Assembly (NCBI RefSeq): GCF_900079115.1
Contig: NZ_LT549890.1
Location: forward strand, 2,880,001-2,912,000
Direction: 5' to 3'
DNA: 32,000 nt
DNA from: Saccharolobus solfataricus
Lineage (GTDB): Archaea > Thermoproteota > Thermoprotei_A > Sulfolobales > Sulfolobaceae
The stretch's first letter is position 1. The number at the start of each line of letters is the position of its first letter. Position numbers and translations under genes: made by a program. Shown here one piece after another: positions 1 to 27,627 of this stretch. Under the pieces are notes generated by a model. It was given only the letters and a program-made list of their open reading frames with translations. It was not told the DNA's origin and did not search any database.

Positions 1-508
1 TGTAGACTTCATATCGTGATGTTATATCCAGGTTGGCTGTAGGCTCATCTGCTATAATTATTTCTGGATTTTTCATTAAAGAAAAAACTACCTGTAATTT
101 CTGTTTAGTACCAGCTGAAAGTTCTCTAACTTTATTTTTCATAAAGTGTAACAAATTAAAGTCCTCTAATAACCTTTTGGCATCGCTAAGAGGATAATTA
201 AATTCACTGGAGACTTCCTTTACTATGTCAATTACAGTGAGGTATTGTGGTAAAAATGGCTTATCCAAAATTATACCAACTTTTCTCGCTATTTTATTAC
301 TATTCCAAGGATCCTCTCCTAAAACACTTATATAGCCAGAGGTCCTATTTATTAGCCCACCAATTATCTTAAGTAGTGTCGACTTACCAGCACCATTAGG
401 ACCCATCACCAAGGTTATACTCCTATCCTCTATGGAGAATGTAAGGCCATGGAGTACCTCAATATCACCATACCTCTTTGTTAGATTGTCTGCTTCAATC
501 ACGCCCAT
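1..508 (-). CDS. ABC transporter ATP-binding protein; the C-terminus runs off the window
   Basis: Manual reverse translation from the ATG at 508-506 gives MGVIEADNLTKRYGDIEVLHGLTFSIEDRSITLVMGPNGAGKSTLLK... It has a Walker A (GPNGAGKST), an ABC signature-like motif (LSAGTKQKL) and a Walker B (IIIADEPT). The ORF stays open to position 1. Confidence 0.85.
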   Translation of the reverse strand, partial: MGVIEADNLTKRYGDIEVLHGLTFSIEDRSITLVMGPNGAGKSTLLKIIGGLINRTSGYISVLGEDPWNSNKIARKVGIILDKPFLPQYLTVIDIVKEVSSEFNYPLSDAKRLLEDFNLLHFMKNKVRELSAGTKQKLQVVFSLMKNPEIIIADEPTANLDITSRYEVY

Positions 509-542
509 ATCACGAAATACGTTATTAACACTAAAAAACTTT

Positions 543-905
543 TTAAAAGACTAATGTGGCTTTAGCCTCGGAACTCCTTAATGCGAATTCAGAAACACCG
601 CTTACCTTAACCTTATCCAACAGCCTTTCATGATCAACGTTCTTAACTTTCATTCCAAATTCACATGCTGTAAGTTCTATGTCATCTCCTCCTAATTCTA
701 TCAGATTTTCATAGTAATATGATAATGGCTTTACGTTAGGTAGCTGTATTTTCTCTATTTCCTTTGTTACTCCCCTTAATCCATCCATAGTGAAGAACAT
801 ATATACTTTATTTCCAGAAGAGGCGTAACCTATTGCAGTTATATAGGCCATATAGAGTTTCTCGGCTTCTCCAGATATTACCATTATTGCATATAAATCG
901 CTCAT
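543..905 (-). CDS. DsrE/DsrF-like (DrsE_2-type) sulfur-relay family protein
   Basis: 120 aa. The FFTMDGL and TACEFGM motifs resemble the FFTFWGL and AC.mS motifs of DsrE-like 'peroxiredoxin family' proteins. Its start overlaps the upstream ORF stop by 4 nt, which suggests operon membership. Confidence 0.65.
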   Translation of the reverse strand: MSDLYAIMVISGEAEKLYMAYITAIGYASSGNKVYMFFTMDGLRGVTKEIEKIQLPNVKPLSYYYENLIELGGDDIELTACEFGMKVKNVDHERLLDKVKVSGVSEFALRSSEAKATLVF

Positions 906-1189
906 TCCTTATTCGCCTCCTCCAATTCTCTAACCGTCTTAACTAGATTATACCAGAAGAATATGAGTCCCAAATAAACTACTATGTAACAAATGTATCT
1001 AGTTACCTCTATATATCCTTGCAATTGGGATGGGAACACATAAGCTGAAAATACACCGTTTTCTAACGCTACATTATTATTAGGGACTATATATTGCACA
1101 GAGAATTCATACCAACCTATTGCAAATAAACTTACTATTAAGGGTGACAATAGTCTCCTAATAATTGGCAAGAAAATCATCATAACCAC
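902..1189 (-). CDS. small hydrophobic membrane protein of unknown function
   Basis: 95-aa ORF with about 3 hydrophobic segments. It overlaps both neighbours on the same strand (10 nt with the yeeE-like stop, 4 nt with the dsrE-like start), consistent with translational coupling. Confidence 0.5.
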   Translation of the reverse strand: MVMMIFLPIIRRLLSPLIVSLFAIGWYEFSVQYIVPNNNVALENGVFSAYVFPSQLQGYIEVTRYICYIVVYLGLIFFWYNLVKTVRELEEANKE

Positions 1190-2409
1190 CTTTCTTGGAC
1201 TTTAACCGCTAAATAAACTCCTAACAACATTCCGAATAGGAATATGATACCGTCATAACCTAATTGAGCGAAATTGGTCCACATCAATCCTACATTGCAT
1301 CCGAGAGCCATCCTAACACCTATACCAACTAACATTCCTCCTCCAAACCCTATCAGCAATCTACTCTTATTCCTAGGTATTCGTATTTTGAAGTCGCCAC
1401 TTAAATACGATGCCGAGAAAGCTCCAATACACAACATTATTACCATTAGCGTACTGGGGTCTATGATTGGTAGCGAATCGTTAAACCATGGTGTGTTTAG
1501 AAATAACTTGACATTTCCTAACATTAACAAGTACTCGAAGAACCTACCGCCGTCAGATGAGGTTATCACAAGGTAATTGAAGGTATATCCAGCACCAACT
1601 ATGAAAACTAAAAGCAAATCTAATGCTAATATTATCGTAGTTAAATTAGTTCCATATGGTTTTCTTAAAAGTATCAAATCTTTAATTTCCTTGGTTAACG
1701 ATACCTTTTCTTCTCCAGATGTGCTTAGGTTTTGATTATAATACGCTCTCGCAGTAGGTAAATTAATGCTTAGACCAGATGAGATTGCCCATTTTCTCTT
1801 AGTGTACTGTTGTAAGTATATTCCAATGAATATTAGCGGTAGACTAACTACTAGCGTGGTTATATAGATTGACATATTTGAAATGGAGTGAAATATAAGA
1901 TAAGGTAAGTATTCTACATATCCTCCGTTAATAGTAGATAAAATTCCATTCGTCATTGTGTATAGCTGGAAAGGCCATATGCCTATGGCAAATACGTAAG
2001 TTCCTATCATCATTCCGAATAGCTCTATCCAATTTTGAACGTAGCCACTAGCAGCCCTATACAACATTGACAAATTACAACCTCCGGCTAATGCTGCACC
2101 AAAGCCGAATATTATAGAGCCAACAAGAATGTACCATCCTGCAAAATAGTTATAATAATACTGATCAACAGCTGGAATAAACCCAAATGCAACCAGCAAT
2201 CCACATCCCAAAGCAGATAATCCGAATAGTATTAAAAGGGCTCCAAATCTCTCATAGCTTTTAGCTGTAAATATTGATGTCATGGCGTTTACAAAACAAT
2301 AATTGCCTCTTTGGGCTGCCCAACCTAAAATAAATCCGGAAAGAGCAAACAATCCATAAACTAATGCCCAATTCTCTTGAAGTACTGGCTGTAGTACCAT
2401 ACTTGGCAT
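1180..2409 (-). CDS. YeeE/YedE-family sulfur-compound (thiosulfate-type) transporter
   Basis: 409-aa polytopic membrane protein. Three Cys motifs lie in hydrophobic helices (GNYCFVNA, GGCNLSM, LGCNVGL), as in YeeE/YedE. It sits immediately downstream of tusA. Confidence 0.85.
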   Translation of the reverse strand: MPSMVLQPVLQENWALVYGLFALSGFILGWAAQRGNYCFVNAMTSIFTAKSYERFGALLILFGLSALGCGLLVAFGFIPAVDQYYYNYFAGWYILVGSIIFGFGAALAGGCNLSMLYRAASGYVQNWIELFGMMIGTYVFAIGIWPFQLYTMTNGILSTINGGYVEYLPYLIFHSISNMSIYITTLVVSLPLIFIGIYLQQYTKRKWAISSGLSINLPTARAYYNQNLSTSGEEKVSLTKEIKDLILLRKPYGTNLTTIILALDLLLVFIVGAGYTFNYLVITSSDGGRFFEYLLMLGNVKLFLNTPWFNDSLPIIDPSTLMVIMLCIGAFSASYLSGDFKIRIPRNKSRLLIGFGGGMLVGIGVRMALGCNVGLMWTNFAQLGYDGIIFLFGMLLGVYLAVKVQERWL

Positions 2410-2412
2410 TGA

Positions 2413-2661
2413 TTATTTCACCTTCAGGATTCTCACCTTATAAATTCCGTTATCTTTTATCACTACAAACGGGTATCCTAAGGATTTGCATAAAGAAGGT
2501 AAAGTAACATGTACTGCGGGCTCGTGATCTGTTAATACTTCTAGCATTTGTCCAACTTTCATTTTCTTCAATTTTTTGCTTGCGCTCATTTCTGGAACAG
2601 GACATTCTTCTCCTCTAACATCAAGAACCTCGTCTGGCTGTCTTAAAGTTAGATCTTCCAC
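2413..2661 (-). CDS. tusA: TusA/SirA-family sulfur carrier protein (GTG start)
   Basis: 82 aa with the CPxP active-site motif in [10 protein letters not shown]. It pairs with the YeeE-like gene 3 nt downstream. Confidence 0.85.
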
Positions 2662-2672
2662 TTTGACTCCCT

Positions 2673-2790
2673 CAAAATATTACGTATTTTTAGGTAATTA
2701 TAAAAGTTGTGATATTATAAACCCTTATTAAAGTTGGTATAATTAAATTGTAATTATCATATCTACAATATCTAATATTTTTGCATAAAA
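2673..2790. repeat. left copy of a perfect 118-bp inverted repeat (partner 6070-6187)
   Basis: Block-by-block manual reverse-complement alignment gave 118/118 identity. Positions 2743-2790 on the minus strand are a relic copy of the last 15 codons plus stop of the DsrE-like gene at 5770-6117. Confidence 0.95.
2695..2705 (-). promoter_or_regulatory. putative TATA box (TTTTATAATTA) of the tusA operon, inside the left repeat copy
   Basis: The A/T box lies 33 nt upstream of the tusA GTG. That distance predicts a transcript start close to the outer end of the repeat, leaving an 11-nt unique leader (agggagtcaaa). Confidence 0.45.
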
Positions 2791-2959
2791 ATTATAAAAC
2801 ACCTTATCTAGCAAAGCTAACTAACCCAAAAGATTTTTACTTCACATTTTTATGATTGTTTAATGATAAGAATAGACTTTTTATTCTTAAAATTAAATTC
2901 AGTTATCCATTAAATGGCTAAAGATAAGTTTTTAAATAGAATTAGCATCATTTTAAACA

Positions 2960-3970
2960 ATGATAGAGGAAACTACACTGATTTACGCTGAAGATTTCAA
3001 GCCGTTATTAGACTTGGAAAACTCGTATAAATTATATAAATTATCAAATATAAAAAAGCTAGATTTTGGTTATATTTGTTACCTTACCATGTTCAAACTA
3101 AAAGTAGAATGTATTTGCAAACCAAGAAAAGATGGCTTGGACATAATAGAAAAGAATGGAAGGTTCATAATAGATATAACATTCCAGAAGGAAAGTGAAG
3201 AGAGAATAAATGTAAAAATAAGTTACAGAGGAATTCTCGAAAAACTCCTAAGTAGCATAGCAAACTCCATAAGGAAAAATTTGGAAGAGTATTCGAGGTA
3301 CTTGTTGAGGAAACAAAAAGTTGAAAATAATTTTAGAATTTCTACTCTTAAGCCAGATAAGGTAGTAGATCTTAGAGGGGAAGAATGCCCAGTTCCAGAA
3401 ATAACGTTAAAGAGAGAATTGATGAAGGCTAATAGGGGAGAAATAGTAGAAGTTTTGACTGATAATCCTGCCGCAGTAGCTCACACTATTCCAGAAATAA
3501 TTAAGTTATTTAACTGTAGATATGAGGTCTTGAAATACGAAGACTACGTATCTTTTAGGATTTTAGTTTTAAGTAATATAATTAACACTGATGAATACGT
3601 TAAGGCTATTAAGGAATTTAATGAGATTAGAATTAAAGAACTAATTAGGGATAAGAAATTTATGTCATTTTTATATACATATTTTATGAAACTCCATAAA
3701 ACTGAAAAAGTTAATGATTTTAGGAATTATATATTTAACTGTGAAAAAGATATTTGTCTAGTCTCCTCTGCACCTCTAGGTAGAGGTTGGCTATTTACTG
3801 GACTGGTTAAGAATAACAAAATAGTATGTGCTAGGATTGACACTAAAGACGGAACCTTATTAGATTACGAAGCCTTAGAATATTTAAAGAAGTTATCCAG
3901 TGGTGTTTCACCAATTTTACTCAAAATGATACAATTTCTATGGAAGAGAAAAATATCAGAGCGGAGTTAG
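2960..3970 (+). CDS. three-domain protein with a central TusA domain; 3' end replaced by an IS insertion (native reading frame ends at 3896, remainder is IS-derived)
   Basis: 336-aa ORF. Residues ~133-205 ([40 protein letters not shown]...) form a TusA domain sharing RGEECPVPE with the stand-alone TusA. It is flanked by ~130-aa N- and C-terminal domains of unknown family. The IS left end at 3897 lies inside the ORF. Confidence 0.7.
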   Translation: MIEETTLIYAEDFKPLLDLENSYKLYKLSNIKKLDFGYICYLTMFKLKVECICKPRKDGLDIIEKNGRFIIDITFQKESEERINVKISYRGILEKLLSSIANSIRKNLEEYSRYLLRKQKVENNFRISTLKPDKVVDLRGEECPVPEITLKRELMKANRGEIVEVLTDNPAAVAHTIPEIIKLFNCRYEVLKYEDYVSFRILVLSNIINTDEYVKAIKEFNEIRIKELIRDKKFMSFLYTYFMKLHKTEKVNDFRNYIFNCEKDICLVSSAPLGRGWLFTGLVKNNKIVCARIDTKDGTLLDYEALEYLKKLSSGVSPILLKMIQFLWKRKISERS

Positions 3971-5337
3971 AAAAATCGGCTTATTTCAACACAAGAAGCA
4001 AAAAATTTTCATATTTGTTGAAGAAACTAACAGAAAACGAGTTTATATATAAAGAGTAATACCATTTGTCTAGTATTATCAATAGAGGAAAGTAGGTGGA
4101 AGGACGAGATGAACAAGAAAAGGTTAAAGCGAGGGACTCCATAACTCCGTTATGCAAACCATACAAGTATCCAAAACGGAGCTGAAGTCCCTCGCTATAA
4201 ATTTAGCAACAAACAATATTAACGTTATCTCTCAAGATCTAGACCCGGAAATAGTGAAAGCAGCACCATCCTTGCTAACCGGAAACAGAGGAAAATACTA
4301 CTTGAAGGTAGTAAGACGAGGCGAGAAAGTAATTAGTAAAGGTCAGAGAACCTTCAAGTTCTACCCAATCTACAGAGAAGTAAAGGGAGAGATCAACGTA
4401 GTCGCTGTAGATGAGACCGGATTAACCGTGGGAGAAAAGGAACAAGAAAAAGCAGAGGGCTTTCTACTCTACAACTGGAAGAGAAAAGGAGTAAAGATGA
4501 GATCCTTGGACCTCGTATATCCCTTAAGGTTACCCCTCCTAGTGGAGGTAGCAGATTTGAGAAGCGACAGTCCATCACAGTTCCTACTCAGGAGCGTGAG
4601 GGAAGTAAGCCAATACATGGAAATAGATTACGTTGTAGCTGACGCCGGATTCTTGAACCTAGGGGTCATCAAGGAAATGCCCGTGAAGACCATTGTGAGA
4701 GGAAAGTCGAACTTGAAGGGATTCAAGGAACTATCTAACGTTCCATTAGTTGAGAAGAGATACGAGGTTAAGGACAAGGTTTACGTTGCGTATAGGGTCT
4801 TGAAATTTGAAGGGCTTTATTATTACGATGTGGTTTACGTTAAGGGAAAGCCGAGGCACTTTATGTTCGTGACGAACTTCGAGGGAGATCCCTATGAACT
4901 GGCTGAACTCTATAGGTTGAGGTGGCAGGTTGAGGAGGGTTTTAAGGTTAGGAAGGCAAGGATAAGGTATGTTAGGAAGTTGAGTAACAAGATCTTCTTG
5001 TTCCTCTATTACACGGTTCTGGATTCTGCGTGGAATCTAGTGAATCATCTTCTCTTTAACTTCAAGTCCACGTGTAAGAAGGTTTTGTCCTTCGATTCAT
5101 TCGTCAAGCTTCTCTAACTTTCTCGGTGTTCAGAGGAGACTATGCACGTCGTTTTCACCACGTGAGAAAAATTCAGAATTCTCCTCTTATTATTAGAATT
5201 GTACGCTATATTTTTTGCAAATTACCTTAACATGTTATGTTTCATAATAATTTTATTGTTTTTCTCTATATCAATCTCTTTTTGAAAGGACTAATATTAT
5301 ATCTTTCAAATGAAATAATTTGGTGAAACACCACTGG
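3897..5337 (+). mobile_element. IS4-family insertion sequence, 1441 bp (size and family fit the Sulfolobus ISC1439 type; that name is from memory only)
   Basis: Perfect 18-bp terminal inverted repeats: ccagtggtgtttcaccaa at 3897-3914 and its reverse complement at 5320-5337. Flanking 7-bp direct repeat AAGTTAT at 3890-3896 and 5338-5344. One internal DDE transposase ORF. Confidence 0.9.
4152..5117 (+). CDS. DDE transposase (IS4 family)
   Basis: 321 aa. The C-terminal YRLRWQVEEGFKVRK matches the IS4-family Y-(2)-R-(3)-E-(6)-K signature. The ORF lies between the IS terminal repeats. Confidence 0.85.
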   Translation: MQTIQVSKTELKSLAINLATNNINVISQDLDPEIVKAAPSLLTGNRGKYYLKVVRRGEKVISKGQRTFKFYPIYREVKGEINVVAVDETGLTVGEKEQEKAEGFLLYNWKRKGVKMRSLDLVYPLRLPLLVEVADLRSDSPSQFLLRSVREVSQYMEIDYVVADAGFLNLGVIKEMPVKTIVRGKSNLKGFKELSNVPLVEKRYEVKDKVYVAYRVLKFEGLYYYDVVYVKGKPRHFMFVTNFEGDPYELAELYRLRWQVEEGFKVRKARIRYVRKLSNKIFLFLYYTVLDSAWNLVNHLLFNFKSTCKKVLSFDSFVKLL

Positions 5338-5417
5338 AAGTTATCTGGAGAAACAAACGTTATGTATTTATCGTTAGATTAACTATTTTAAAAAAATTTA
5401 TTTAGACTAAGTGCGTA

Positions 5418-5789
5418 TTGCCAATTATGGAGCTTAAGGATGAATGTGGCTGTATAATCAATAGAAGATACGCTTCAGATTTTCTAATGAAAAGGTTATT
5501 TAGTTATAGGAAGAAGGTAAATGCGGAAAAATTAGGCTATTTTAGAATAGATAATTCTAGATGGTTCGCACTCTATAGGGCTAGAGATGGAAAAATATAT
5601 TATGAAAGTTCTGAATGTCCACTACTTATAATAACCTTAGAAGCACTCTGTGAGGGATATATGGAAAATAATGGAAAAATAGATAGATATACCTTCATGG
5701 GAAAATTAAGTAAAATTAAGGGATTTACAATCAATCAGATAGTGAATGAAGTTATTGACAAATTTATAAATGGTGTTAATGGTGGTTAA
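5418..5789 (+). CDS. hypothetical Cys-containing protein (possible true start at ATG 5427)
   Basis: 123-aa ORF with a CGC motif near the N-terminus and two further Cys residues. Its stop overlaps the start region of the downstream DsrE-like gene. No family recognised. Confidence 0.5.
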   Translation: MPIMELKDECGCIINRRYASDFLMKRLFSYRKKVNAEKLGYFRIDNSRWFALYRARDGKIYYESSECPLLIITLEALCEGYMENNGKIDRYTFMGKLSKIKGFTINQIVNEVIDKFINGVNGG

Positions 5790-6117
5790 GAGAATTGCTT
5801 ACATAGTCGAATCCAATTTGGGTTCTTACATTTTAGGACAGATGATAATACCACAGTTAGAGGAAAACAGACACAACGCGGAAGTTATTGGAATGTTCTT
5901 TATACACGATAATGTATATATTTTAATGAAAGATAACCCTTTAGCCGAAAGATTAAGCAAGCTTAGTAGAGAAAGGGGCATATATTTGCAAGCTTGTGAT
6001 CAATGTGTATACATGAGAAACTTAGCTGATAAATTAATAGAGGAAGCAAAGATCGGTTGTTTCCCAGACTTTTATGCAAAAATATTAGATATTGTAGATA
6101 TGATAATTACAATTTAA
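5770..6117 (+). CDS. DsrE/TusD-family sulfur-relay protein (start may be the ATG at 5779)
   Basis: 115 aa. RIAYIVES, MFFIHDNVY and LQACDQC match DsrE-family hallmarks (vFFyqDGV and the conserved active-site Cys region). Confidence 0.7.
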   Translation: MVLMVVKRIAYIVESNLGSYILGQMIIPQLEENRHNAEVIGMFFIHDNVYILMKDNPLAERLSKLSRERGIYLQACDQCVYMRNLADKLIEEAKIGCFPDFYAKILDIVDMIITI

Positions 6118-6187
6118 TTATACCAACTTTAATAAGGGTTTATAATATCACAACTTTTATAATTACCTAAAAATACGTAATATTTTG
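6070..6187. repeat. right copy of the perfect 118-bp inverted repeat (partner 2673-2790)
   Basis: Covers the last 48 nt of the DsrE-like gene plus the whole intergenic promoter region, ending 10 nt before the GTG at 6198. Confidence 0.95.
6155..6165 (+). promoter_or_regulatory. putative TATA box (TTTTATAATTA) of the 6198-8858 operon, inside the right repeat copy
   Basis: Same sequence and spacing as the left copy. A 10-nt unique leader (gggaaatcga) precedes the GTG at 6198. Confidence 0.45.
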
Positions 6188-6197
6188 GGGAAATCGA

Positions 6198-7415
6198 GTG
6201 AATAAAAAGCAGTTAATCAAAGCGTTATCCAGTTATCAATTATGGTTAATAGTAGGACTTATAGTAATTATATTGATAGGAGTAGGAGCTGCATACATTA
6301 TGTTAAAGCAATCTCCATCATCGTCAACACCTAGTTCAACCCAAACCACCAGTAGTCCAGTTTCTACTACATTACCTCAATACAGCTTCCTAGTATTCAC
6401 ACAGAAAGGAATTGCAGAAATAATAAACCCATCATCCACTACTCCTTTCCAAGGATATATCCATTCTATTAACATCTCTACGAACTTACCCCAACAAGTA
6501 TATTGGTGGGTTGAATATCCACTCGAAAGTGTGGCACAATCTCGATACTACTTCATACCAGTAAATAATGGCACAGTCTACGTAATCGATCCTAATAGTT
6601 TAAAGATCATAAAGGAATTCAATTTTGGAAATAGTATAGGGTTTATAGGAGTTTCGTACTCGCCAAACCAACAATTAGTTGCAGTTGCAGATGGACCAAG
6701 CGGTATCTTAGCCCTAATTAACGTTTCATCGCTTAACGTAATATGGGAACAACACTTCGTATCTTCAGTTAACGGCAGAACGTATTATCCCTGCGACGTT
6801 AGATGGAGCCCAGATGGAAGCTACTTAATAGTTCCAATGAGATTTAACAATAGTGTTGACCTTATAGCGTTAAACGGTAGTGTAATTAAGGTTTTACCTG
6901 CAGTTGCTGGTTCGCAACCCTATATGGTAAGCCCTAATATACAAGGGACAATGGTAGCGGTAGAGTACGTTGGGAATAACTCAGTTGGATTTTACTCTCT
7001 ACCATCATTGAAATTGTTAGGCATATTACAAATGCCAAATGGTACAATACCTCAGAGGGGCGTATTCACACCAAATGGAGAGTACTATCTAGAGGCACCT
7101 TCAAACGCAAATCAAGTGTTTGTAATATCTACATCAACTTTTCAGATAGCCAAAACTATAGACTTGCCAACATTTAGCGTTAAAGGCTTGGCGGATATAG
7201 AACTTATGCCTGGAGGACAATATGCATACGTTGTGATTCACGGTAATATACAATCAGGCGGTATAATAGCTCTAATATCCCTAAGTAGTTTAACAGTGAG
7301 TAGCTATGTACCCTTGTCTACTGCTCCAGCAGTGATAATTCCAGTTCAAAACCAAGTGGCAACTTACCTAGTCGATAACGTCTTACTGCCTCCAGTTAGC
7401 GGACTTCACTGTTAA
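6198..7415 (+). CDS. membrane-anchored or secreted beta-propeller protein (YVTN-type repeats) with a Ser/Thr-rich stalk
   Basis: 405 aa. N-terminal TM segment, then [20 protein letters not shown]. Repeated motifs such as [16 protein letters not shown] and [11 protein letters not shown] are typical of YVTN/WD-like propeller blades. Confidence 0.7.
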
Positions 7416-7425
7416 GGGGATAAGG

Positions 7426-8337
7426 ATGAAAGTCATACACCCATATTTCTATACTTTTTTGTTTTTTAATTTTACTATATTTCTCCCAATTTTAATAAAT
7501 GGGGTTAGGATAGTTAGTTTGTGGTATTCTCCCTTATCCGATACTGGACAACAAACGTTTATATTTCCCTTTTTAATATTCACTGTTATATATCTCGCTT
7601 GCTCCAGTATAGTTGGGTACTTCCTTTACAAGTACAAGGAGAATAAATTCATATTAGTGAAAGGAGACTTCAACGTACTAAATATTATAAAGAGTCTTCT
7701 CAGAGATAAAACGTTTAGAAAAATGCTAACTTTTTATTCAATTGTCTATTTTTTATCTTTCTTAATAGTTGGAGGAGTTATCCTTATACCAAACATTAAC
7801 ATTAGCCCATATTTTATAAAGCTAACAATAATAACATACAACGCATATGGAATTCAAACCTACTTCAATTTCTTCGTGCTTAATATACCAATGATCGTCT
7901 TTGGTTTATTAAACACGTTAATATTATCATTTGCGTTTATGCTAAGCTACTATACCATATCACTAATGTATGTGTCATACAATTTAATGAAATGGAAAGT
8001 ACCTAGAACCTTTAGGATAGCTACAACAAACATGGTAGGAGGATTCTTGACAGCCTCAGTCCCATCAATTGGAACTATTGCGGGAATTTGTTGTTTAACC
8101 CCTACTGCAATAAATTCATTATTGTATCTCGCTTCTTCCTCATTCCCATTAATAAGTAAAAACCTAGTGTGGAAGTACACAATCTATATGGGAATGCCTC
8201 TACTCTCTACTATCTCCCAATTAATATTACTATCCTCCCCCGTATTTGCAGGAATAGCAATTCTCTCTTTATCATTATATTCTCTCATGCAAATTAGCAA
8301 GAAATTAAGGGAGGGATTGCTATGGCAAAGACAATGA
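7426..8337 (+). CDS. polytopic membrane protein with an intramembrane CC motif, unknown family
   Basis: 303 aa with about 8 hydrophobic segments, including GTIAGICCLTPTA. It starts 10 nt after the upstream stop, preceded by ggggataagg. It overlaps the next gene by 16 nt. Confidence 0.65.
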   Translation: MKVIHPYFYTFLFFNFTIFLPILINGVRIVSLWYSPLSDTGQQTFIFPFLIFTVIYLACSSIVGYFLYKYKENKFILVKGDFNVLNIIKSLLRDKTFRKMLTFYSIVYFLSFLIVGGVILIPNINISPYFIKLTIITYNAYGIQTYFNFFVLNIPMIVFGLLNTLILSFAFMLSYYTISLMYVSYNLMKWKVPRTFRIATTNMVGGFLTASVPSIGTIAGICCLTPTAINSLLYLASSSFPLISKNLVWKYTIYMGMPLLSTISQLILLSSPVFAGIAILSLSLYSLMQISKKLREGLLWQRQ

Positions 8338-8858
8338 TCTCCAATAATTTTACACTAATTTTAAGAATATCAATAGCCTCCATATGGCTTTATGCCGGTA
8401 TTTTACAGAAACTTCTCAATCCAGCATTTCTGAATCCATCTTCCGAACAATATGTAGGTTTCACTATACAATACTTATCCCAAGGGTCTATTATAAGGCA
8501 GTTTTTATACATAGTCGCAATGCCACATCCGGTTCTAGTGGGAACATTAGTCATGATAGGAGAGATTAGCTTTGGGATTCTAACTCTTATAGGATTAATG
8601 AGCAGACTATGTAGCGTAGTAGCATTTTATACCAACTTAATTTACTTCTTATCTGCTAGCTGGACTGGAGCTGAGGAATATGGATTAAATCTTTTAATGA
8701 TGATAATAAATGCGTACATAATAGCTTATGGTCCTGGTATTTACTCAATAGACTCTCTGGTTTCTCGAAAAGTTAACGTTGTAAATAACAAGATAATATG
8801 GATAATAGTAGGTAGTGCAATATATGTTGCGATCATTGTGTATCTAATACTTGTCTAG
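8322..8858 (+). CDS. DoxX/MauE-like small membrane protein
   Basis: 178 aa with 4 hydrophobic segments. The N-terminal LILRISIASIWLYAGILQKL resembles the DoxX-family signature. The family call is tentative. Confidence 0.55.
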   Translation: MAKTMISNNFTLILRISIASIWLYAGILQKLLNPAFLNPSSEQYVGFTIQYLSQGSIIRQFLYIVAMPHPVLVGTLVMIGEISFGILTLIGLMSRLCSVVAFYTNLIYFLSASWTGAEEYGLNLLMMIINAYIIAYGPGIYSIDSLVSRKVNVVNNKIIWIIVGSAIYVAIIVYLILV

Positions 8859-9865
8859 GATAGTCTCATTTTTACATACCCAACAATTAGGAGAATAGTT
8901 GCTAAGAGAGAATCTAAGTATCTATCATATATTATTAAATTTATGATATAAAATCCTAGTATTACAGAATAATATATCATGTTCTTACTTCCGAATGGTG
9001 CAAGACCGTAAACACCTAAAGAGAAAGAGATTGACGCTATTATATAGGGTAAAATCAGTACGATGTTATTACCTATCAAAATAAATTCAAACAAATAAAA
9101 TGGCAGACTGGATAACATAATTATCAAAGGTATCTCAGCTAGTAATTTTCCTATGTATACCTTACTTATTCCTACTAACCTTATAATTTGCCTTAATTCG
9201 CCTCTAGGAAAAGAGGATAATAAATAGTAACTCATCAAATCGATAAAGGAAAAAACAAATATCAAAAGGATAATTAGAGGTATCTTTAGCGTGTTTGAAA
9301 AATTATTGTAGGTGAAATTGACATTTAGAGGAAGATTAACGTTATCTGAATCGATCTCAGAAATTGTATAGTTTAGATTTTCTTGTTCAGGATCCACTGC
9401 GATGAAAGTCTTACCCTTAACACTTATGATTGAAAGATTTTGACTGGAATAATATTTTAAGAAAAGACTTGAAAAGGCGAAAGTAGTTGAAGAATTTGGT
9501 ATATATACTGTTAAATTTACGCTCTTTTGAAGCGAATTTTTTATTATTATTAAGTTAATCCTAGTACTATTGTGAACATATGCTACTGGAAGATACAAGT
9601 AAAATGACCCATTATTCGTCTTAACACTCTCTGTGAAATTGTAGTATGACAACTTTATTTCTGAACTCACACCGTTTCCTTGAAAGTCAAAGACGTAACC
9701 TGATACTTTTATCCCATAAGAAGAACCTTGAATGATACCTACAACGCTTATTGACATGGAAAGAATTTGCCCTACTATTAGCGATAAACTCAAGGCTATG
9801 AGAATTAGGAAGACAAACGCAACTGATCTTTTAAATTCCTGCATAAAAATATAGGAAAGCTTCAT
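8855..9865 (-). CDS. ABC-2-type permease-like membrane protein with a large extracytoplasmic loop
   Basis: 336 aa. TM1, then a ~170-aa loop rich in N-x-S/T, then 5 C-terminal TM segments. It overlaps the upstream ATPase gene by 35 nt. Confidence 0.6.
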   Translation of the reverse strand: MKLSYIFMQEFKRSVAFVFLILIALSLSLIVGQILSMSISVVGIIQGSSYGIKVSGYVFDFQGNGVSSEIKLSYYNFTESVKTNNGSFYLYLPVAYVHNSTRINLIIIKNSLQKSVNLTVYIPNSSTTFAFSSLFLKYYSSQNLSIISVKGKTFIAVDPEQENLNYTISEIDSDNVNLPLNVNFTYNNFSNTLKIPLIILLIFVFSFIDLMSYYLLSSFPRGELRQIIRLVGISKVYIGKLLAEIPLIIMLSSLPFYLFEFILIGNNIVLILPYIIASISFSLGVYGLAPFGSKNMIYYSVILGFYIINLIIYDRYLDSLLATILLIVGYVKMRLS

Positions 9866-10544
9866 CGGGTGTCACTCTAATAACCTCATACTTAATTCCA
9901 CGTTTATCTAAATCAATCTCGACACTATTATCGTTTTCCCTTTCCCATATCTCATCGTTCTCGAATTTTATAACTTTGTACAATAATCCACTTTTAGAGC
10001 CATCAAAAACAATCTTACCCTTAGAAATAATTATAACCCTATTGATTAAATCCCATATATCCTTAAGATTATGATGAGCAATTATTACACTTCCTTTAAA
10101 GTTCCTTATTAAATCTCTCGTTAATGAAGAAGTTTGGGACATGTCATCAACTATGAGATATTTCGGGGAAAAAGGTAATGAAAGAGCTAAGGATAACCTC
10201 TTTTTCTCGTCTAATGCCAGATCCCTAATCTTCTTATCCCTATCTAAACCAACAAGATCTATATAGTGATACTCCTTCGTAACATAACTCATTACGTCCT
10301 TTACCCTTATAGTGGATATGAATTTGGGTACTTGAGGTATATAAGCGATCTTCCTCTTGTCATCTAAATACACTTTACCTCTACTCGGTTTAGTCTCACC
10401 AGCTAGTATCTCAACTAATACAGTCTTCCCTGAGTTATGAACACCAACAACTCCTATCTTTTCGTTCTCATAAATATCTAGATTAACGTTAACCACTGCA
10501 AAGCTTCCGTGAAAAACTTTACTTACATTTATTGCTCTTATCAC
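9831..10544 (-). CDS. ABC-type ATPase with degenerate signature and Walker B motifs
   Basis: 237 aa. Walker A GVHNSGKT, Q-loop IPQ. The signature position reads LALDEKKRL instead of LSGGQ. Walker B reads LIVDDMS (D in place of the catalytic E). H-loop IIAHHN. Confidence 0.75.
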   Translation of the reverse strand: MIRAINVSKVFHGSFAVVNVNLDIYENEKIGVVGVHNSGKTVLVEILAGETKPSRGKVYLDDKRKIAYIPQVPKFISTIRVKDVMSYVTKEYHYIDLVGLDRDKKIRDLALDEKKRLSLALSLPFSPKYLIVDDMSQTSSLTRDLIRNFKGSVIIAHHNLKDIWDLINRVIIISKGKIVFDGSKSGLLYKVIKFENDEIWERENDNSVEIDLDKRGIKYEVIRVTPDEAFLYFYAGI

Positions 10545-12375: not shown

Positions 12376-13038
12376 ATGATAAAAAGTTATACCGTAATAC
12401 TCTCGCACGACGATTGGAGTCGTTATACTGAGAAATTTGATGAAGAGGAATTATATGTAAAAGTAGTTAGAAGAATTCCATCCTTAGATGGACTCACTGA
12501 AAACGTTATGGGTGTAATTTACGCCAAGGACAAGGACTCTTATAAGCAAATAGTTAAAATGCTTAGTAGAAATGCGACAACAATTGACTTTAAAATAATA
12601 GATTTGTATAAAAACAAATCTGGAATCAGAGCAATATACGCATCTGTAGAGAGTCTTAGAGGGAGAATAGCTGAAAGGTTACTACGAGATTGTAGGATTT
12701 TCAGTATGAACGAAACTATATATGAAGGAATGGAAAGATGGAGTATAATTGCTGACTCTGAAAACTTCATCAAGATCATACCAGAGGTGAAAGAGTTAAC
12801 TTACGAGTTTAAAATTATTGAGGAATCTTCAAATCCATTCCTTTCAGTAAAGGAAGAGCTAACACCTAAGGAATTAGCCATTCTGAAACTGGCCTTTGAT
12901 AGGGGATACTTTGAAACACCTAAAAGGATAGGATTAGAGGATTTGGCAAATGAGTTAGGGATTTCTAAACCAGCCATAATGCAGGTTTTAAGAAAAGCTA
13001 TAGCGAAGTTAGCTGAAAAAACTATAAGAGATATTTAA
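12376..13038 (+). CDS. HTH_10 (Bat-type) DNA-binding regulator
   Basis: 220 aa. The C-terminal LTPKELAILKLAFDRGYFETPKRIGLEDLANELGISKPAIMQVLRKAIAKL matches the HTH_10 pattern (L-T-x-x-q-x-e-x-L-x-x-A-x-x-x-G-Y-F-e-x-P-R). Confidence 0.75.
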   Translation: MIKSYTVILSHDDWSRYTEKFDEEELYVKVVRRIPSLDGLTENVMGVIYAKDKDSYKQIVKMLSRNATTIDFKIIDLYKNKSGIRAIYASVESLRGRIAERLLRDCRIFSMNETIYEGMERWSIIADSENFIKIIPEVKELTYEFKIIEESSNPFLSVKEELTPKELAILKLAFDRGYFETPKRIGLEDLANELGISKPAIMQVLRKAIAKLAEKTIRDI

Positions 13039-17096: not shown

Positions 17097-17777
17097 ATGC
17101 ATGTTTATAAAGTCAAGCTTGACCTTAAACACGATTCGTGCTGGACATATAAAACGTCTGATTTCAAAGTAAATGCGGAGGTAAAATATCTCTTTCCTCT
17201 AATAACTAAGAATTCAATTTTTGAAATAGCCGAGATTTACTCTGATGATAAAAATGAACTTTCAGATTTTATATCAGCAATTAATAGAAGGTATGGTAAT
17301 AATATAAAAGTTGCTAACATAGATAGGCAGAGGTCTAGTAAAGTGGCTTTATTATACTATTTTAAAAATTTCGACAACTCTGTTACAAGAGTTATGATTG
17401 AGAACAATGCAGTAATAACAAACTTATCCATAAGTAATGGAATAGAGGAGTGGTACGCATATTTCTTTGGAGAGGAAGAGGAGATTCTCTCAAATATATC
17501 GCATGGTCTAAAAAGGATAGACGTTAAGGTAGAGAACATAGATCTGGAAAAAACTAAATTAAACGAAATAAAAAACGATCTAGTCATAATTAACTCCCTA
17601 ACTCCTACTGAGAGGGAAATTCTTACGACTGCAATCAAGTTAGGGTTCTTTGAGTATCCTAAAAGAGTCAGATTAGAGGAGTTAGCTGAGATGTTCGGAG
17701 TTACTAAGGTAACTTTAGATAGGCATATAAGAAATGGGTTAAGGAAGATTTTAAGTCAATTATTTATAAACTCCTAG
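17097..17777 (+). CDS. HTH_10 (Bat-type) DNA-binding regulator, paralog of 12376-13038
   Basis: 226 aa. C-terminal LTPTEREILTTAIKLGFFEYPKRVRLEELAEMFGVTKVTLDRHIRNGLRKIL. The architecture matches the 12376 gene, including an N-terminal H-D-x-x-W motif (HDSCW versus HDDW). Confidence 0.75.
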   Translation: MHVYKVKLDLKHDSCWTYKTSDFKVNAEVKYLFPLITKNSIFEIAEIYSDDKNELSDFISAINRRYGNNIKVANIDRQRSSKVALLYYFKNFDNSVTRVMIENNAVITNLSISNGIEEWYAYFFGEEEEILSNISHGLKRIDVKVENIDLEKTKLNEIKNDLVIINSLTPTEREILTTAIKLGFFEYPKRVRLEELAEMFGVTKVTLDRHIRNGLRKILSQLFINS

Positions 17778-18539: not shown

Positions 18540-19298
18540 ATGCGTAAATTCTGTGACTTAAGTGGAAAAATAGCCGTTGTAACTGGAGGTGCAAGTGGTA
18601 TAGGAAGAGCTATAGCGTTTAAATTTGCTAGTCTAGGGGCTACAGTGGTTTTAGGTGATGTGAAAATGGAAGAACTTAATACTGTCGCAAACGAAATCGC
18701 TCAGCAGACTAGCTCTAAAGTAATTCCACTTTATGTAAATGTGGCTGATTTCAATTCAGCTAAAGAGTTCTATATTAAAGCCACTGAGACTTTGGGAGTA
18801 GACTACGTGGATATTTTAGTAAACAACGCTGGGATAAATAGGGACGCCTTATTCGTTAAAATGACCTATGAGCAATGGGATGAGGTGATAAAAGTTGACC
18901 TATATAGTATGTTTAACATGACTAAGCAAGTTGTTGATGGGATGATAAAGAGAAATTATGGAAGAATTATCAACATGTCTTCGATGAGTTGGTTGGGAAA
19001 CATCGGTCAAGCGAACTATTCAGCAGCTAAAGCTGGGGTCATAGGCTTCACGAAAACTCTAGCGAGGGAATTGGCTAAATATAACATAACTGTTAATGCC
19101 ATAACTCCAGGTTTCATAGATACTCCAATGACTAGGGCGGTTCCTGAAAAGGTTAGACAAAAGATCATAGAGAGAATACCAATGGGTAGAATTGGTAACC
19201 CGGAAGAAGTAGCTAACCTAATAGCTTTCCTATCATCTGAAGAAGCGTCTTATATAACGGGAGAGGTAATAGGAGTTACCGGGGGCCTGATATTATGA
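18540..19298 (+). CDS. short-chain dehydrogenase/reductase, 3-oxoacyl reductase (FabG)-like
   Basis: 252 aa. Cofactor motif TGGASGIGRAIA, NNAG, and the catalytic S...YSAAK. Its stop overlaps the next start (ATGA). Confidence 0.85.
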   Translation: MRKFCDLSGKIAVVTGGASGIGRAIAFKFASLGATVVLGDVKMEELNTVANEIAQQTSSKVIPLYVNVADFNSAKEFYIKATETLGVDYVDILVNNAGINRDALFVKMTYEQWDEVIKVDLYSMFNMTKQVVDGMIKRNYGRIINMSSMSWLGNIGQANYSAAKAGVIGFTKTLARELAKYNITVNAITPGFIDTPMTRAVPEKVRQKIIERIPMGRIGNPEEVANLIAFLSSEEASYITGEVIGVTGGLIL

Positions 19299-20452
19299 TA
19301 ACTGGGTTCGCTAGCAGTCTCTACAAAAAATATGAAGGGTCAACCTTCGAATTATTAGCTGATACGGTATTTTCGGCATTAGAAATTGCGGGTTTAGATA
19401 AGACCAATGTGGATGGAATATATCTTACATATCTGCCTGGTACTTTTGATAGTTACGCTTATTCCCATTTTTTCACAAACCAAGTAGCCCAATATCTTGG
19501 AATAAGACCTAAATTCGCTCAAATTTTTGATTATGGAGGAGCCTCTGCCTTAAGTATGATATATAGAGCATATAAGGCAATTAAGTCTGGAGAAGGTGAA
19601 ACGATTTTATGTATTGTAGGTGGAAAGGCTTCAGAGTTGAGAAATAAAGGAGTTACTGTAGATGCAATAGATAAGGCATACCCTGATGTTTCTCTAACAC
19701 CTTTTGATAGGCTTTTCAGAGGACTTAATGACCTAAATCCAGTATCAGATTACGCACTAGTTGCTAATAGGCATATGTATCTCTTCGGTAGTACGGATGA
19801 GCAAAGAGCCCTAATAGCGGTTAGGCAAAGATTTAACGCATCACAAAACAGTAAGGCAATGTTCAGAGATTTACTCAGTGTAGAACAAGTGTTAAAATCT
19901 CCTTTAGTTTCCTATCCTTTACATCTTCTTGAAATAGTTTACCCTATAGACGGTTTTCACGTTTTTGTAGTAAGTAAAAGAAGTAGCAAATCAGCTCTTA
20001 GAGATATAGATATCTTAGGGTATGGAGAAGCTCATTGGCCTCTAATGCCTGCAGAGCTAGATGAAATAGTATATACCCCAGCCGTCGAAAGTTCAAAGGG
20101 ACTATTAAGCGAAAAGATAGATGCCTTCGAGCTTTATGACTCGTTTACCGTAACCGTTATGTTAGAAGTTGAAGATATCGGTTTAGCGGAGAAAGGTAAG
20201 GGAGGCGTGTTTTTTGAGAATCATGATACTACTTACAAGGGAGATGTTCCTATAAATACTGGGGGAGGTAGCTTGAATACTGGTCAACCAGCTTTCATGA
20301 GTGGTGGTGTCATTTTAGAGGAAGCATTACTTCAATTGAATGATATGGCATATGGCCATCAAGTTAAGGGTGTGAATAAGGTCTTCCTAAATGGGGTGGG
20401 TGGGTGGAATAGATCTCATTCAGTTTCTTTAGTATTAGGTGAGGGTAGATGA
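19295..20452 (+). CDS. thiolase-superfamily (SCP-x/archaeal thiolase-like) protein lacking the canonical catalytic residues
   Basis: 385 aa. Fold-level motifs are kept (PLHLLE..PIDG, NTGGGSL, NGVGG). The nucleophile site reads DYGGASALS (expected xxCASGG). The HDCF motif reads YDSF. GHP reads GQP. Confidence 0.8.
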   Translation: MITGFASSLYKKYEGSTFELLADTVFSALEIAGLDKTNVDGIYLTYLPGTFDSYAYSHFFTNQVAQYLGIRPKFAQIFDYGGASALSMIYRAYKAIKSGEGETILCIVGGKASELRNKGVTVDAIDKAYPDVSLTPFDRLFRGLNDLNPVSDYALVANRHMYLFGSTDEQRALIAVRQRFNASQNSKAMFRDLLSVEQVLKSPLVSYPLHLLEIVYPIDGFHVFVVSKRSSKSALRDIDILGYGEAHWPLMPAELDEIVYTPAVESSKGLLSEKIDAFELYDSFTVTVMLEVEDIGLAEKGKGGVFFENHDTTYKGDVPINTGGGSLNTGQPAFMSGGVILEEALLQLNDMAYGHQVKGVNKVFLNGVGGWNRSHSVSLVLGEGR

Positions 20453-20799
20453 GGTTAGAGGAAATATACTCATACTACGATAAAATAATACGAAGCGGAT
20501 CCTTGCCGTATATTAGATGTAGGAATTGTACGTATACGTTCTTTTACGTAAGGCATGTATGTCCCAGATGTAGTTCGAGAGATTTAGAAATTCTAAGAAG
20601 TAATGGAATCGGTAAGGTCTTTTCGTGGACTAAGATATTTAGGAAAAACGAAAGTTTCATATATGGTATTGTGGAGTTAGAGGAGGGATTTAAGATATAT
20701 TGTAATTTAGCAAGCGACGTTGAGATAGGTGATAAAGTTAAGGTCGATATTATCCCGTTAGAAGATGGGAAGTATAGGGTATTAGCAAACAAGCTTTAA
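20449..20799 (+). CDS. DUF35 family protein (rubredoxin-like Zn ribbon plus OB fold)
   Basis: 116 aa. The C-x2-C...C-x2-C pattern is CRNCTYTFFYVRHVCPRC, followed by an OB-like segment GKVFSWTKIF. The start overlaps the thiolase-like stop (ATGA). Confidence 0.8.
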   Translation: MRLEEIYSYYDKIIRSGSLPYIRCRNCTYTFFYVRHVCPRCSSRDLEILRSNGIGKVFSWTKIFRKNESFIYGIVELEEGFKIYCNLASDVEIGDKVKVDIIPLEDGKYRVLANKL

Positions 20800-23582: not shown

Positions 23583-23813
23583 ATTTTCCCTCCCACCCAC
23601 CCTTATGTTTATACTTAATCATTATATATTAATAAATTTTCTTACAAACAACTCCGAAACGGCTATATCTGATTTCCTCCTCTTTCTGAGATTTTGGTTG
23701 GAAAAAATGGGGTGAAATGGATCTGTCGGGAAGCGAGACATGTTGAAACCATCATCATTAAACCTAACTTGTAAACATGATTGCTTATTAGTTTTAAATT
23801 CGGATTCCTTTAT

Positions 23814-25490: not shown

Positions 25491-25520
25491 TTTTTTATCT
25501 GAATTCCCCTTTTCTATTTT

Positions 25521-26924: not shown

Positions 26925-27020
26925 TGTGAAATCTCTCCCTGAATGGTGAAGAACTGGGTCCTTACTGAAAAATCCTTAACTTGGATATCTTTCTCTTTTT
27001 AGTTTAGTTTATTTCCTTTT

Positions 27021-27560: not shown

Positions 27561-27627
27561 CTTTTCACCTATATGTTAACTTCTTATTTCATCCTTTTAA
27601 GGAAAACGTACCGGAACAGTGAAACAG

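Follow-up and report, generated by a model that had tools for sequence, protein, structure and literature searches.

The systems most closely related to the one considered here have been described for separate steps of sulfur traffic. The YeeE channel was reported to need a TusA-like partner protein, YeeD, for the uptake of thiosulfate (PMC11073785), and the transfer of a thiosulfonate group from DsrE3A to TusA was demonstrated in Metallosphaera cuprina (PMC4175335). A 2021 review of sulfur metabolism in the Sulfolobales listed both the entry of sulfur into the cytoplasm and the role of additional DoxD paralogues as open questions (PMC8551704). The present analysis concerns a 32,000-nucleotide stretch of the Saccharolobus solfataricus genome (contig NZ_LT549890.1, positions 2,880,001 to 2,912,000 of the forward strand; hereafter ‘the window’, whose own numbering is used for all unqualified coordinates), and in particular a conserved ten-gene cluster at its left end, in which a TusA–YeeE pair is found together with two DsrE-like proteins, a three-domain TusA fusion, a small protein with four invariant cysteines, and a group of surface and membrane proteins that includes a DoxD homologue. 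The TusA–YeeE pair and its DsrE-family companions provide a bona fide sulfur-trafficking context, and we give an even chance to the reading that the cluster takes up inorganic sulfur species at the membrane and relays them along cysteines into the cytoplasm.

A preliminary description of the window, made from its letters and open reading frames (ORFs), had drawn attention to six proteins encoded between positions 543 and 6117, all of which proved to be present, and had interpreted them as a dense, cytoplasmic sulfur-relay island. It had overlooked an insertion sequence (IS) of the ISC1439A type, the true ends of genes, a small membrane protein gene at 902–1189, and the extension of the unit to position 8858. 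Comparison with related loci established that the conserved unit spans 543–8858 and contains ten genes, encoding a DsrE-family protein, a small cysteine-containing membrane protein, YeeE, TusA, the TusA fusion, a four-cysteine (‘4-Cys’) protein, a SaoD-like protein, a beta-propeller, a membrane protein with a Cys-Cys motif (the ‘CC protein’), and DoxD. The fusion, the 4-Cys protein and the SaoD-like protein are collectively termed the ‘trio’ below. No transmembrane (TM) segment was recognized in the trio, TusA or the DsrE proteins, and the beta-propeller is predicted, from an estimate of its topology, to reside outside the cell, so the purely cytoplasmic island of the preliminary description gives way to a cluster that also includes an extracellular protein, the polytopic CC protein and DoxD.

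The cluster recurs, in spite of rearrangement, in Saccharolobus, in another member of the Sulfolobaceae (locus L004), in Ca. Acidianus copahuensis (where all ten genes lie on the same strand), in S. tokodaii of the genus Sulfurisphaera, in Metallosphaera and in S. acidocaldarius SUSAZ. The order of its genes differs between genera and the genes nonetheless remain together, and because their linkage has survived such shuffling, it provides good evidence that they share a function. The genes for the beta-propeller, the CC protein and DoxD always lie 3′ of the SaoD-like gene in relatives that are 91% and 62% identical. Individual losses were also observed: Sulfolobaceae strain RB850M has a collinear set that lacks the SaoD-like gene, and in Sulfolobus sp. 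D5 the fusion, the tusA–yeeE–DsrE module and the surface and DoxD genes are kept, with no 4-Cys or SaoD-like gene called. Every component of the cluster carries cysteines that are invariant across about 40–60% divergence.

The fusion gene begins at position 2960 on the forward strand, and its annotated ORF of 336 codons runs to position 3970. The arrangement originally proposed for its product, in which a TusA domain is sandwiched between two other domains, is upheld by this analysis; the length of 336 residues is not, because the last 24 residues are encoded by an ISH3-family element, ISC1439A (1441 bp, 3897–5337, forward strand), that is inserted within the 3′ end of the gene. The 5′ part of the gene (2960–3896, forward strand; 937 nucleotides carrying codons 1–312) is thereby separated from its last 12 codons (SGETNVMYLSLD) and stop codon, which were located by in-frame reconstruction at 5345–5382 on the same strand. 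The element was recognized by perfect 18-bp terminal inverted repeats (CCAGTGGTGTTTCACCAA, present in only two copies in the window, where none is expected by chance), by a 7-bp target duplication (AAGTTAT, at 3890–3896 and 5338–5344), and by the ORF of a DDE transposase (4152–5117; DDE_Tnp_1, 69.8 bits) that shares a 90%-identity cluster with proteins named ISC1439A. Its G+C fraction is 0.418, versus about 0.31 on both flanks, in a window of low G+C content overall.

Removal of the element and of one copy of the duplication, which joins 2960–3896 to 5345–5382, restores a native product of 324 residues that ends in KKLSGETNVMYLSLD and matches an uninterrupted protein from elsewhere (P0001) with 100% identity from end to end. 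Sulfolobus sp. E11-6 has an annotated 324-residue allele that clusters with this product at 90% identity. A word-indexed search for the fusion returned seven clusters only, all of 318–326 residues and with identities down to 39%, and the three-domain architecture was observed in every full-length relative examined (314–326 residues, from at least five genera). The sole exception to that architecture, P0078, has no start methionine and looks N-terminally truncated, and an apparent 191-residue fusion in S. acidocaldarius SUSAZ corresponds to a truncated gene call, with the N-terminal domain encoded in frame upstream. The fusion is a real three-domain protein, and across the surveyed neighbourhoods, in at least five genera, it is always accompanied by DsrE-like, TusA and YeeE genes.

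In a confident AlphaFold model of the fusion, built from the seven clusters (predicted local distance difference test, pLDDT, 83), residues 1–120 form a beta element, two short helices, six strands and a 27-residue helix, which is the order of a START/SRPBCC helix-grip fold. A Foldseek search with the model returned START/SRPBCC matches at a probability of 1.0, with E-values from 1.5e-5 to about 3e-3 and template-modelling scores of up to 0.62 on the target, including ARO/CYC cyclases, TTHA0849, plant PR-10/PYL proteins and S. tokodaii STK_08120 with myristate (PDB 3w9k); these matches were assigned to the N-terminal domain from its topology, the aligned ranges being absent from the Foldseek output. 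Of the two flanking domains that the preliminary description could not place, the first therefore has a model-based candidate, a START/SRPBCC-like fold, and the second remains, like the 4-Cys protein, without a family. The TusA domain itself occupies residues 134–201 (PF01206, 58.8 bits against a threshold of 28.6), and residues 134–202 match TusA and YeeD structures in Foldseek, among them the YeeE–YeeD complex 8k1r (E = 6e-5). Its kinship with the stand-alone TusA, noted at the outset, was borne out (43% identity, E = 5e-20), with Cys20 of the latter and Cys143 of the fusion both invariant within the motif RGxxCP(V/I)PE; in the fusion, Cys143 (CPVP) is joined by a second invariant cysteine, Cys186 (FNCRYE).

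Residues 205–324 are modelled as three helices, a five-stranded sheet, a helix and a final strand, with an invariant GRGW loop and zero invariant cysteines. A profile of this C-terminal domain, compared with 1.84 billion representative proteins, matched six clusters, of which five comprise proteins of 316–325 residues and the sixth, with no start methionine, is an apparent truncated fragment; the domain is an orphan that is restricted to the fusion. Resemblances of this domain to PATAN/roadblock-like or NTF2-like folds, guessed from its pattern of strands and helices, were dropped, and comparisons by hhalign revealed no relationship between it and the 4-Cys protein, or between the N- and C-terminal domains. 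Outside TusA, the fusion matched no Pfam or NCBIfam family, and its public annotation reads only ‘SirA/TusA family’ or ‘UPF0033’. A second TusA fusion, of 232 residues, is encoded in the S. tokodaii cluster (L026 5957–6655, reverse strand) and joins TusA to an unassigned domain of ~140 residues, for which a SRPBCC-like identity was considered and returned no match by Pfam, PDB or hhalign comparison with the N- and C-terminal domains of the first fusion.

The position of the element within the fusion gene has consequences for the strain at hand. The 12 displaced residues constitute the final beta-strand of the C-terminal domain (residues 313–322 in the model), in which Gly314, Asn317 and Tyr320 are invariant, and since this last conserved strand is lost, the product made in the present strain is probably defective. 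In relatives, the gap between the fusion and 4-Cys genes is about 43 bp, whereas here the 4-Cys and SaoD-like genes lie 1.45 kb from the fusion promoter. Co-transcription of the cysteine protein with the fusion, which had been assumed, does not hold for the present genome because the element lies between them, and the lost strand and the separation from the two downstream genes together indicate that the trio is probably impaired. The annotated 336-residue ‘TusA family protein’ is consequently to be regarded as an IS-truncated chimera.

The genes of the putative import module are encoded on the reverse strand, and the labels initially given to three of their products (stand-alone TusA, YeeE and a DrsE_2-type protein) hold by Pfam. 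The stand-alone TusA (2413–2661; 82 residues; PF01206, 71.6 bits against 28.6) carries Cys20 within CPVP, and its gene lies 3 nucleotides upstream of yeeE in all loci, where it occupies the place that YeeD/TsuB takes beside YeeE. The YeeE/YedE-type (Sulf_transp) channel (1180–2409; 409 residues) matches PF04143 at 186.5 bits over the full length of the profile (positions 1–310 of 310); it had been credited with three cysteine motifs, and an alignment of orthologues shows four invariant cysteines instead (38, 111, 327 and 371). A full YeeE/Sulf_transp gene is likewise found in the cluster of S. tokodaii (L026, BA000023.2, 4400–5632, reverse strand) and of S. solfataricus P2 (L010, 10043–11272, forward strand). 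The small membrane protein (902–1189; 92–95 residues), defined by alignment of its orthologues, has two TM-like segments and an invariant Cys67; it matched no family in a Pfam search, and its gene is present in every related locus, always between yeeE and the DsrE-family gene. The latter (543–905) encodes a cytoplasmic protein of 120 residues, devoid of TM segments, that matches PF13686 (42.9 bits, threshold 25) and PF02635 (32.8 bits, threshold 22.7) and fails the NCBIfam DsrE2 equivalog (23.5 bits, cut-off 210); Cys81 is its sole invariant cysteine among five orthologues. At the level of NCBIfam equivalogs, YeeE scores below both TsuA cut-offs (70.6 of 645 and 64.5 of 400 bits) and reaches 101.8 bits, of the 350 required, with the selenium-associated YedE/FdhT model, and the stand-alone TusA scores 42.6 bits with YedF and 36.1 bits with TusA. 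Several genera possess an extra TusA of 70–80 residues with a double-cysteine GLCC-x-x-P motif (L026 6720–6932, L006 11342–11560, L007 8687–8920 and L008 8666–8908, all reverse strand); none was seen among the Saccharolobus gene calls and window ORFs that were read, no dedicated search having been run.

Downstream of the fusion, on the forward strand, lies the gene for the 4-Cys protein (5427–5789). The preliminary description had correctly noted its presence as a 123-residue protein with a CGC motif; orthologues begin with MELKDECGC, which places the start at the ATG at 5427 and reduces the product to 120 residues, and four cysteines, in the pattern C7-G-C9, C64-P and C75, are invariant in 12 sequences. 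A profile search identified 37 clusters, all from the Sulfolobales and none with a Pfam domain, and the protein itself matched nothing in Pfam or NCBIfam. Its AlphaFold model (pLDDT 80; predicted template-modelling score 0.78) contains a CGC hairpin, a helix, a three-stranded sheet and three further helices, the first of which is capped by Cys64. The four invariant cysteines suggest that the protein holds a metal or Fe-S site, and the model offers a lead, and a lead only, towards an IscU/SufU-like fold. In public annotation the protein is ‘hypothetical’, and the UniRef name of STK_08790 begins ‘NIF system FeS cluster a...’.

The next gene (5770–6117, forward strand) encodes a DsrE-like protein of 115 residues that had been termed a classical DsrE/TusD homologue. 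That label is replaced here, as the best-matching models are NF040732 (SaoD; 133.1 bits, cut-off 169) and NF040913 (SaoD/DsrE-related; 119.2 bits, cut-off 152), while the Pfam DsrE family is barely passed (24.9 bits); Cys76 and Cys79 (a CxxC motif) and Cys97 are invariant in three diverged orthologues. With these scores and cysteines, and outside any SAO locus, the protein is a relative of the SaoD branch that differs both from SaoD proper and from the classical DsrE/TusD proteins. No other Sao family gene was matched anywhere in the cluster. The two DsrE-like proteins of the cluster display no detectable mutual similarity, in agreement with their earlier description as unrelated.

The remaining three genes form an operon on the forward strand. 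The first (6198–7415) encodes a surface-anchored protein of 405 residues with weak matches to beta-propeller hidden Markov models (HMMs), for which an N-in signal anchor (TM segment at residues 17–35) and a Ser/Thr-rich stalk were estimated from topology, and in which Cys199 (YPCD) and a C-terminal GLHC are invariant in an alignment of five orthologues. The second (7426–8337), defined by alignment of orthologues, encodes the CC protein of 303 residues, which has at least six TM-like segments and an invariant motif, GFLTASVPS-GTIAGICCLTP, within which the invariant cysteine pair 222–223 lies near the outer end of one such segment; no Pfam or NCBIfam family was matched. The third (8322–8858) encodes a DoxD-family membrane protein of 178 residues with a full-length match of 208.1 bits to PF04173, a family labelled ‘TQO small subunit DoxD’ in Pfam, and this gene closes the beta-propeller operon in all related loci. 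No family match to DoxA was found among the neighbouring window ORFs.

The proposed sulfur route draws on gene content, domain folds, invariant cysteines, topology and linkage, which were observed, and its biochemistry, from the substrate to each transfer and the succession of transfers, is entirely inferred. At the cell surface, the beta-propeller, the CC protein and DoxD might bind or oxidize an external sulfur compound and, by analogy with DoxDA, deliver the electrons to caldariellaquinone. The import module, consisting of YeeE, the YeeD-like TusA, the small cysteine-containing membrane protein and the DsrE acceptor, would pass thiosulfate or sulfane sulfur to the TusA cysteine, as in the YeeE–YeeD pair, after which the DsrE-family and TusA cysteines could exchange the imported sulfur in the manner of DsrE3A and TusA. 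The fusion might act as a membrane-proximal carrier or adaptor, with its START-like domain either holding a membrane lipid, a quinone or a sulfur chain, or docking at the membrane, with Cys143 carrying the sulfur, and with the orphan domain recruiting a partner. The CxxC motif of the SaoD-like protein would resolve or reduce the bound sulfur, and the 4-Cys protein would serve as the terminal metal- or sulfur-binding acceptor. The earlier suggestion that the fusion and its cysteine-rich companion form a sensor or adaptor layer fits a predicted ligand-binding START-like fold joined to TusA, and the evidence found bears equally on a carrier or adaptor role of the fusion and on a sensor role.

Several observations weigh against this sulfur-import reading. 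At the level of sequence, the START-like assignment draws support from a single match, to PF11485 (STK_08120-like), at E = 0.017 and for one of nine members, with otherwise no significant Pfam or PDB match; and the C-terminal domain could be assigned to no fold or family, whether by Pfam (nine members, E-values up to 10), by PDB profiles, or by Foldseek against the PDB and viral structures. The resemblance of the 4-Cys protein to IscU is a weak one: its best structural neighbours in Foldseek were SufU (E-value 0.04), NifU-N (0.08) and human ISCU (template-modelling scores of 0.57/0.55, probability 0.92), with zero matches at an E-value of 0.001 or better; neither Pfam, PDB profiles nor hhalign (the last queried with an approximate IscU sequence) gave it sequence support. 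YeeE and TusA both score nearer to the selenium-associated YedE/YedF models than to the TsuA/TusA models, and reach none of the equivalog cut-offs. The cluster occurs in species that oxidize sulfur weakly or not at all, such as S. solfataricus and S. islandicus, and so does not track sulfur oxidation, and the IS-broken copy shows that the trio is dispensable under at least some conditions. Finally, a sulfur-induced yeeE was stated to be absent from S. tokodaii and S. solfataricus (PMC11323534), yet both carry the cluster with its own yeeE. The sulfur-induced gene of that study may be a paralogue of the one in the cluster, and two YeeE paralogue groups probably exist in the family; the S. tokodaii locus tags of the cluster have no entry in the transcriptome supplements of the same study.

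The composition of the surface operon raises an alternative, in which the beta-propeller, the CC protein and DoxD constitute a new quinone-reducing oxidoreductase that acts on a sulfur compound outside the cell, YeeE and the relay only recycle or detoxify its product, and the trio is a generic persulfide buffer. The strong, full-length DoxD match (208 bits), the invariant internal cysteine and terminal His-Cys of the beta-propeller, and the PQQ-type (pyrroloquinoline quinone) beta-propeller that adjoins the cluster in L004 are all compatible with such an enzyme, and the role of the extra DoxD paralogues is an acknowledged open question (PMC8551704). However, Pfam and NCBIfam revealed no motif for the binding of a redox cofactor in either the beta-propeller or the CC protein, and the trio is as tightly conserved as the surface module, with invariant residues of their own in the fusion and the 4-Cys protein that argue for a specific role; we consider this alternative unlikely. 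A different function, biosynthesis of caldariellaquinone by transfer of sulfur into a quinone held by the START-like domain, was also considered and set aside: S. acidocaldarius makes caldariellaquinone, and for that species the 4-Cys search returned only SUSAZ.

The trio is itself bracketed by inverted repeats. The left arm (2665–2790; 126 nucleotides) is a copy of the last ~48 nucleotides of the SaoD-like gene followed by the intergenic and promoter region up to the tusA start codon, and the right arm (6070–6195; 126 nucleotides) comprises the true 3′ end of the SaoD-like gene and the intergenic and promoter region up to the beta-propeller start codon. The arms are 98% complementary, and because they include the whole upstream region as far as the start codon, the tusA and beta-propeller operons have identical promoter regions of about 80 nucleotides. 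The same repeat, at 134 nucleotides, was found in S. solfataricus P2, in S. islandicus L.S.2.15 and in one metagenomic relative (arms at L010 7702–7835 and 9657–9790, L012 6683–6816 and 8639–8772, and L001 7701–7834 and 9657–9790), and was absent from more distant genera. Both orientations of the intervening segment exist: the trio reads into the beta-propeller operon (orientation A) in the window, in L.S.2.15 and in CP194013, and into tusA–yeeE (orientation B) in P2, REY15A and L.D.8.5.

Orientation is independent of phylogeny. Loci L015 and L013 differ by 1 nucleotide in 1709 within the trio and by 0 in 2119 within the tusA operon, yet have opposite orientations; of L.S.2.15 (A) and REY15A (B), the former is the closer to P2 (B); and the finished genomes L033 and L034 share an identical fusion allele in opposite orientations. 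While the orientation might be wrong in some draft assemblies, the pattern holds among finished genomes. The arms match each other within a genome and differ between genomes, which corresponds to concerted evolution. The whole pattern is most simply explained by homologous recombination that has occurred repeatedly between the two arms. Many short-read assemblies yield a contig that contains little besides the trio, typically of about 1.9–2.1 kb (one such contig recurs in 20 or more samples); examples are L017, L018 and L023–L025 (Logan contigs of 1.3–2.1 kb) and the 1891-bp contig of P0001. Such contigs are the expected result of an assembly break at the inverted repeat, with their ends expected at the repeat arms, and they could mask the coexistence of both orientations in a culture. 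This 2-kb segment, which has inverted repeatedly, offers a clean natural example of gene-order switching mediated by inverted repeats in archaea, as well as a warning for genome assembly and for synteny analyses at this locus.

The shared upstream region is among the arguments for a second alternative, in which the cluster is a sensory or regulatory layer: sulfur imported by YeeE would be a signal, and a regulator of the two identically promoted operons would be informed of the sulfane-sulfur status by the fusion and the 4-Cys protein. Regulators of the HTH_10 type flank the Saccharolobus cluster, proteins with a START fold frequently serve as ligand receptors (as do the PYL abscisic-acid receptors, which appear in the Foldseek matches), and YeeE-like SoxT proteins have been reported to import sulfur for signal transduction as well as for oxidation (PMC11582611). 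No DNA-binding or signalling output domain was found in the trio, however, the HTH_10 genes are not found beside the cluster in Acidianus, Metallosphaera or S. tokodaii, and three cysteine proteins plus two further TusA/DsrE proteins exceed the needs of a sensor, which makes this alternative rather improbable.

If the importing and surface functions are joined with the inversion, the cluster might be regarded as the missing route of the Sulfolobales for sulfur from outside the cell to the cytoplasm, with capture or oxidation by the beta-propeller, electrons passed to quinone through DoxD, transfer by the CC protein and YeeE, a START–TusA fusion that either binds a hydrophobic sulfur chain or associates with the membrane, and a new IscU-like 4-Cys acceptor, and the inverted-repeat trio as a recombinational switch that couples its own transcription to either the import or the surface-oxidation operon. 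We regard this composite proposal, taken in its entirety, as a long shot.

A third alternative arises from the profile scores. In it, the CC, CxxC, CGC and C-terminal His-Cys motifs bind a soft metal or selenium, YeeE and TusA act like YedE and YedF, and the SaoD-like protein behaves as do those of its bacterial relatives that are associated with metals. The order of the top NCBIfam models (YedE/FdhT above TsuA for YeeE, YedF above TusA for TusA, and SaoD-related models for the 115-residue protein) agrees with it; in addition, relatives of SaoD outside the SAO locus neighbour metal transporters and chaperones, and CC motifs have been argued to suggest contact with heavy metals (Haft, bioRxiv 10.1101/2022.07.06.499078). 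On the other hand, DoxD is known from thiosulfate:quinone oxidoreductase (PMC8551704). The YedE/YedF and SaoD scores all fall far below their equivalog cut-offs, and the cluster contains no other gene of the SAO, mer, ars or cop families. To our knowledge, the Sulfolobales are not known to make selenoproteins, and metal, metalloid or selenium handling appears highly doubtful. The last alternative, that the fusion ORF is an artefact of local rearrangement, is refuted for all but its C-terminal 24 residues and has a negligible probability, since, although the 336-codon ORF as found is a chimera ending in ISC1439A codons and the locus is prone to rearrangement through its invertible segment, removal of the element restores a protein identical to an uninterrupted one and the architecture is seen again in each of the relatives, at identities as low as 39% and across five or more genera.

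The genes that surround the sulfur cluster vary between lineages. In Saccharolobus, HTH_10 (bacterio-opsin-activator-type) regulators lie on both sides (12376–13038 and 17097–17777 in the window, forward strand; 3019–3684 and 16082–16744 in L001), and genes for an ABC-transporter ATPase and permease adjoin the cluster at 8855–10544. At the cluster edge in L004 is a gene for a 577-residue PQQ-type beta-propeller (3700–5433, reverse strand). Small hydrolases of the metallo-beta-lactamase (MBL) fold are found at the edge in Metallosphaera and S. tokodaii, and a B12/radical-SAM (S-adenosylmethionine) protein with sub-threshold similarity to methylthiotransferases (MiaB/RimO) is found at the edge in S. 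tokodaii; these lineage-specific genes lie at L027 13693–14298 (forward strand) and at L026 11402–12022 and 12033–13541 (reverse strand). Identification of the MBL-fold proteins as persulfide dioxygenases was rejected, as they are generic, score below threshold and are not mutually orthologous. Other genes of the window (18540–20799, forward strand, and 23781–31244) encode unrelated functions of housekeeping and catabolism, such as a short-chain dehydrogenase, a thiolase with a DUF35/ChsH2-type partner, TatC, dihydroxy-acid dehydratase, an M32 carboxypeptidase and an aldehyde dehydrogenase. An Rfam scan of positions 1–10000 gave no match.

Literature searches turned up neither a publication that mentions the locus tags of the cluster in P2 or S. 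tokodaii nor one that joins TusA with an SRPBCC/START domain, which agrees with the initial impression that the fusion and the cysteine protein lie outside described systems. Comparison with the individual systems indicates where the likeness ends. With YeeE–YeeD (TsuA–TsuB), the cluster shares a Sulf_transp channel with conserved cysteines that adjoins a small CPxP protein of the TusA fold (PMC11073785); it differs in being archaeal, in scoring far below the TsuA cut-off, and in adding the small cysteine-containing membrane protein, the DsrE-family protein, the TusA fusion, the 4-Cys protein and the beta-propeller/CC/DoxD module. With the DsrE3A–DsrE2B–TusA relay of M. cuprina (PMC4175335), it shares DsrE-family and TusA cysteine carriers in the Sulfolobales, but it is a different locus that is not linked to hdr genes, its DsrE proteins are of the DrsE_2 and CxxC-containing SaoD-related types, and the M. 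cuprina system has no YeeE, fusion or 4-Cys protein. With DoxDA of Acidianus ambivalens (PMC8551704), it shares a full-length DoxD-family membrane subunit, whose operon partners here are the GLHC beta-propeller and the CC membrane protein in place of a detected DoxA. SaoD of the bacterial SAO locus (bioRxiv 10.1101/2022.07.06.499078) provides the closest HMM match to the 115-residue protein, and a CxxC motif and a third cysteine are common to both, whereas the score remains under the cut-off (133 versus 169 bits), the other SAO genes (SaoA/B/P/T/E/C/X/L) were not matched in the cluster, and the host is an archaeon.

At the level of folds, the N-terminal domain of the fusion shares with START/SRPBCC (Bet v 1-like) proteins a predicted helix-grip topology and no significant sequence similarity. 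The 4-Cys protein, when compared with IscU, SufU and NifU-N, places Cys64 at the N-terminus of the helix that follows a three-stranded sheet, a position like that of IscU Cys63; its pattern, C7-x-C9...C64-x10-C75, is nevertheless not the three-cysteine triad of IscU, HMM and profile comparisons gave no similarity, and the Foldseek E-values range from 0.04 to 0.2. The principle of an importer coupled to a relay is therefore known, and the fusion, the 4-Cys protein, the CC protein, the cysteine-terminated beta-propeller and the association of these with DoxD are not described. Two protein families without a described function, the START-like/TusA/orphan fusion and the Sulfolobales-only 4-Cys protein, are defined by this analysis, and the cluster as a whole represents a concrete candidate, amenable to deletion and present in five or more genera of which some have genetic tools, for both of the questions that the 2021 review placed beside the known systems: how sulfur enters the cytoplasm, and what the additional DoxD paralogues do.

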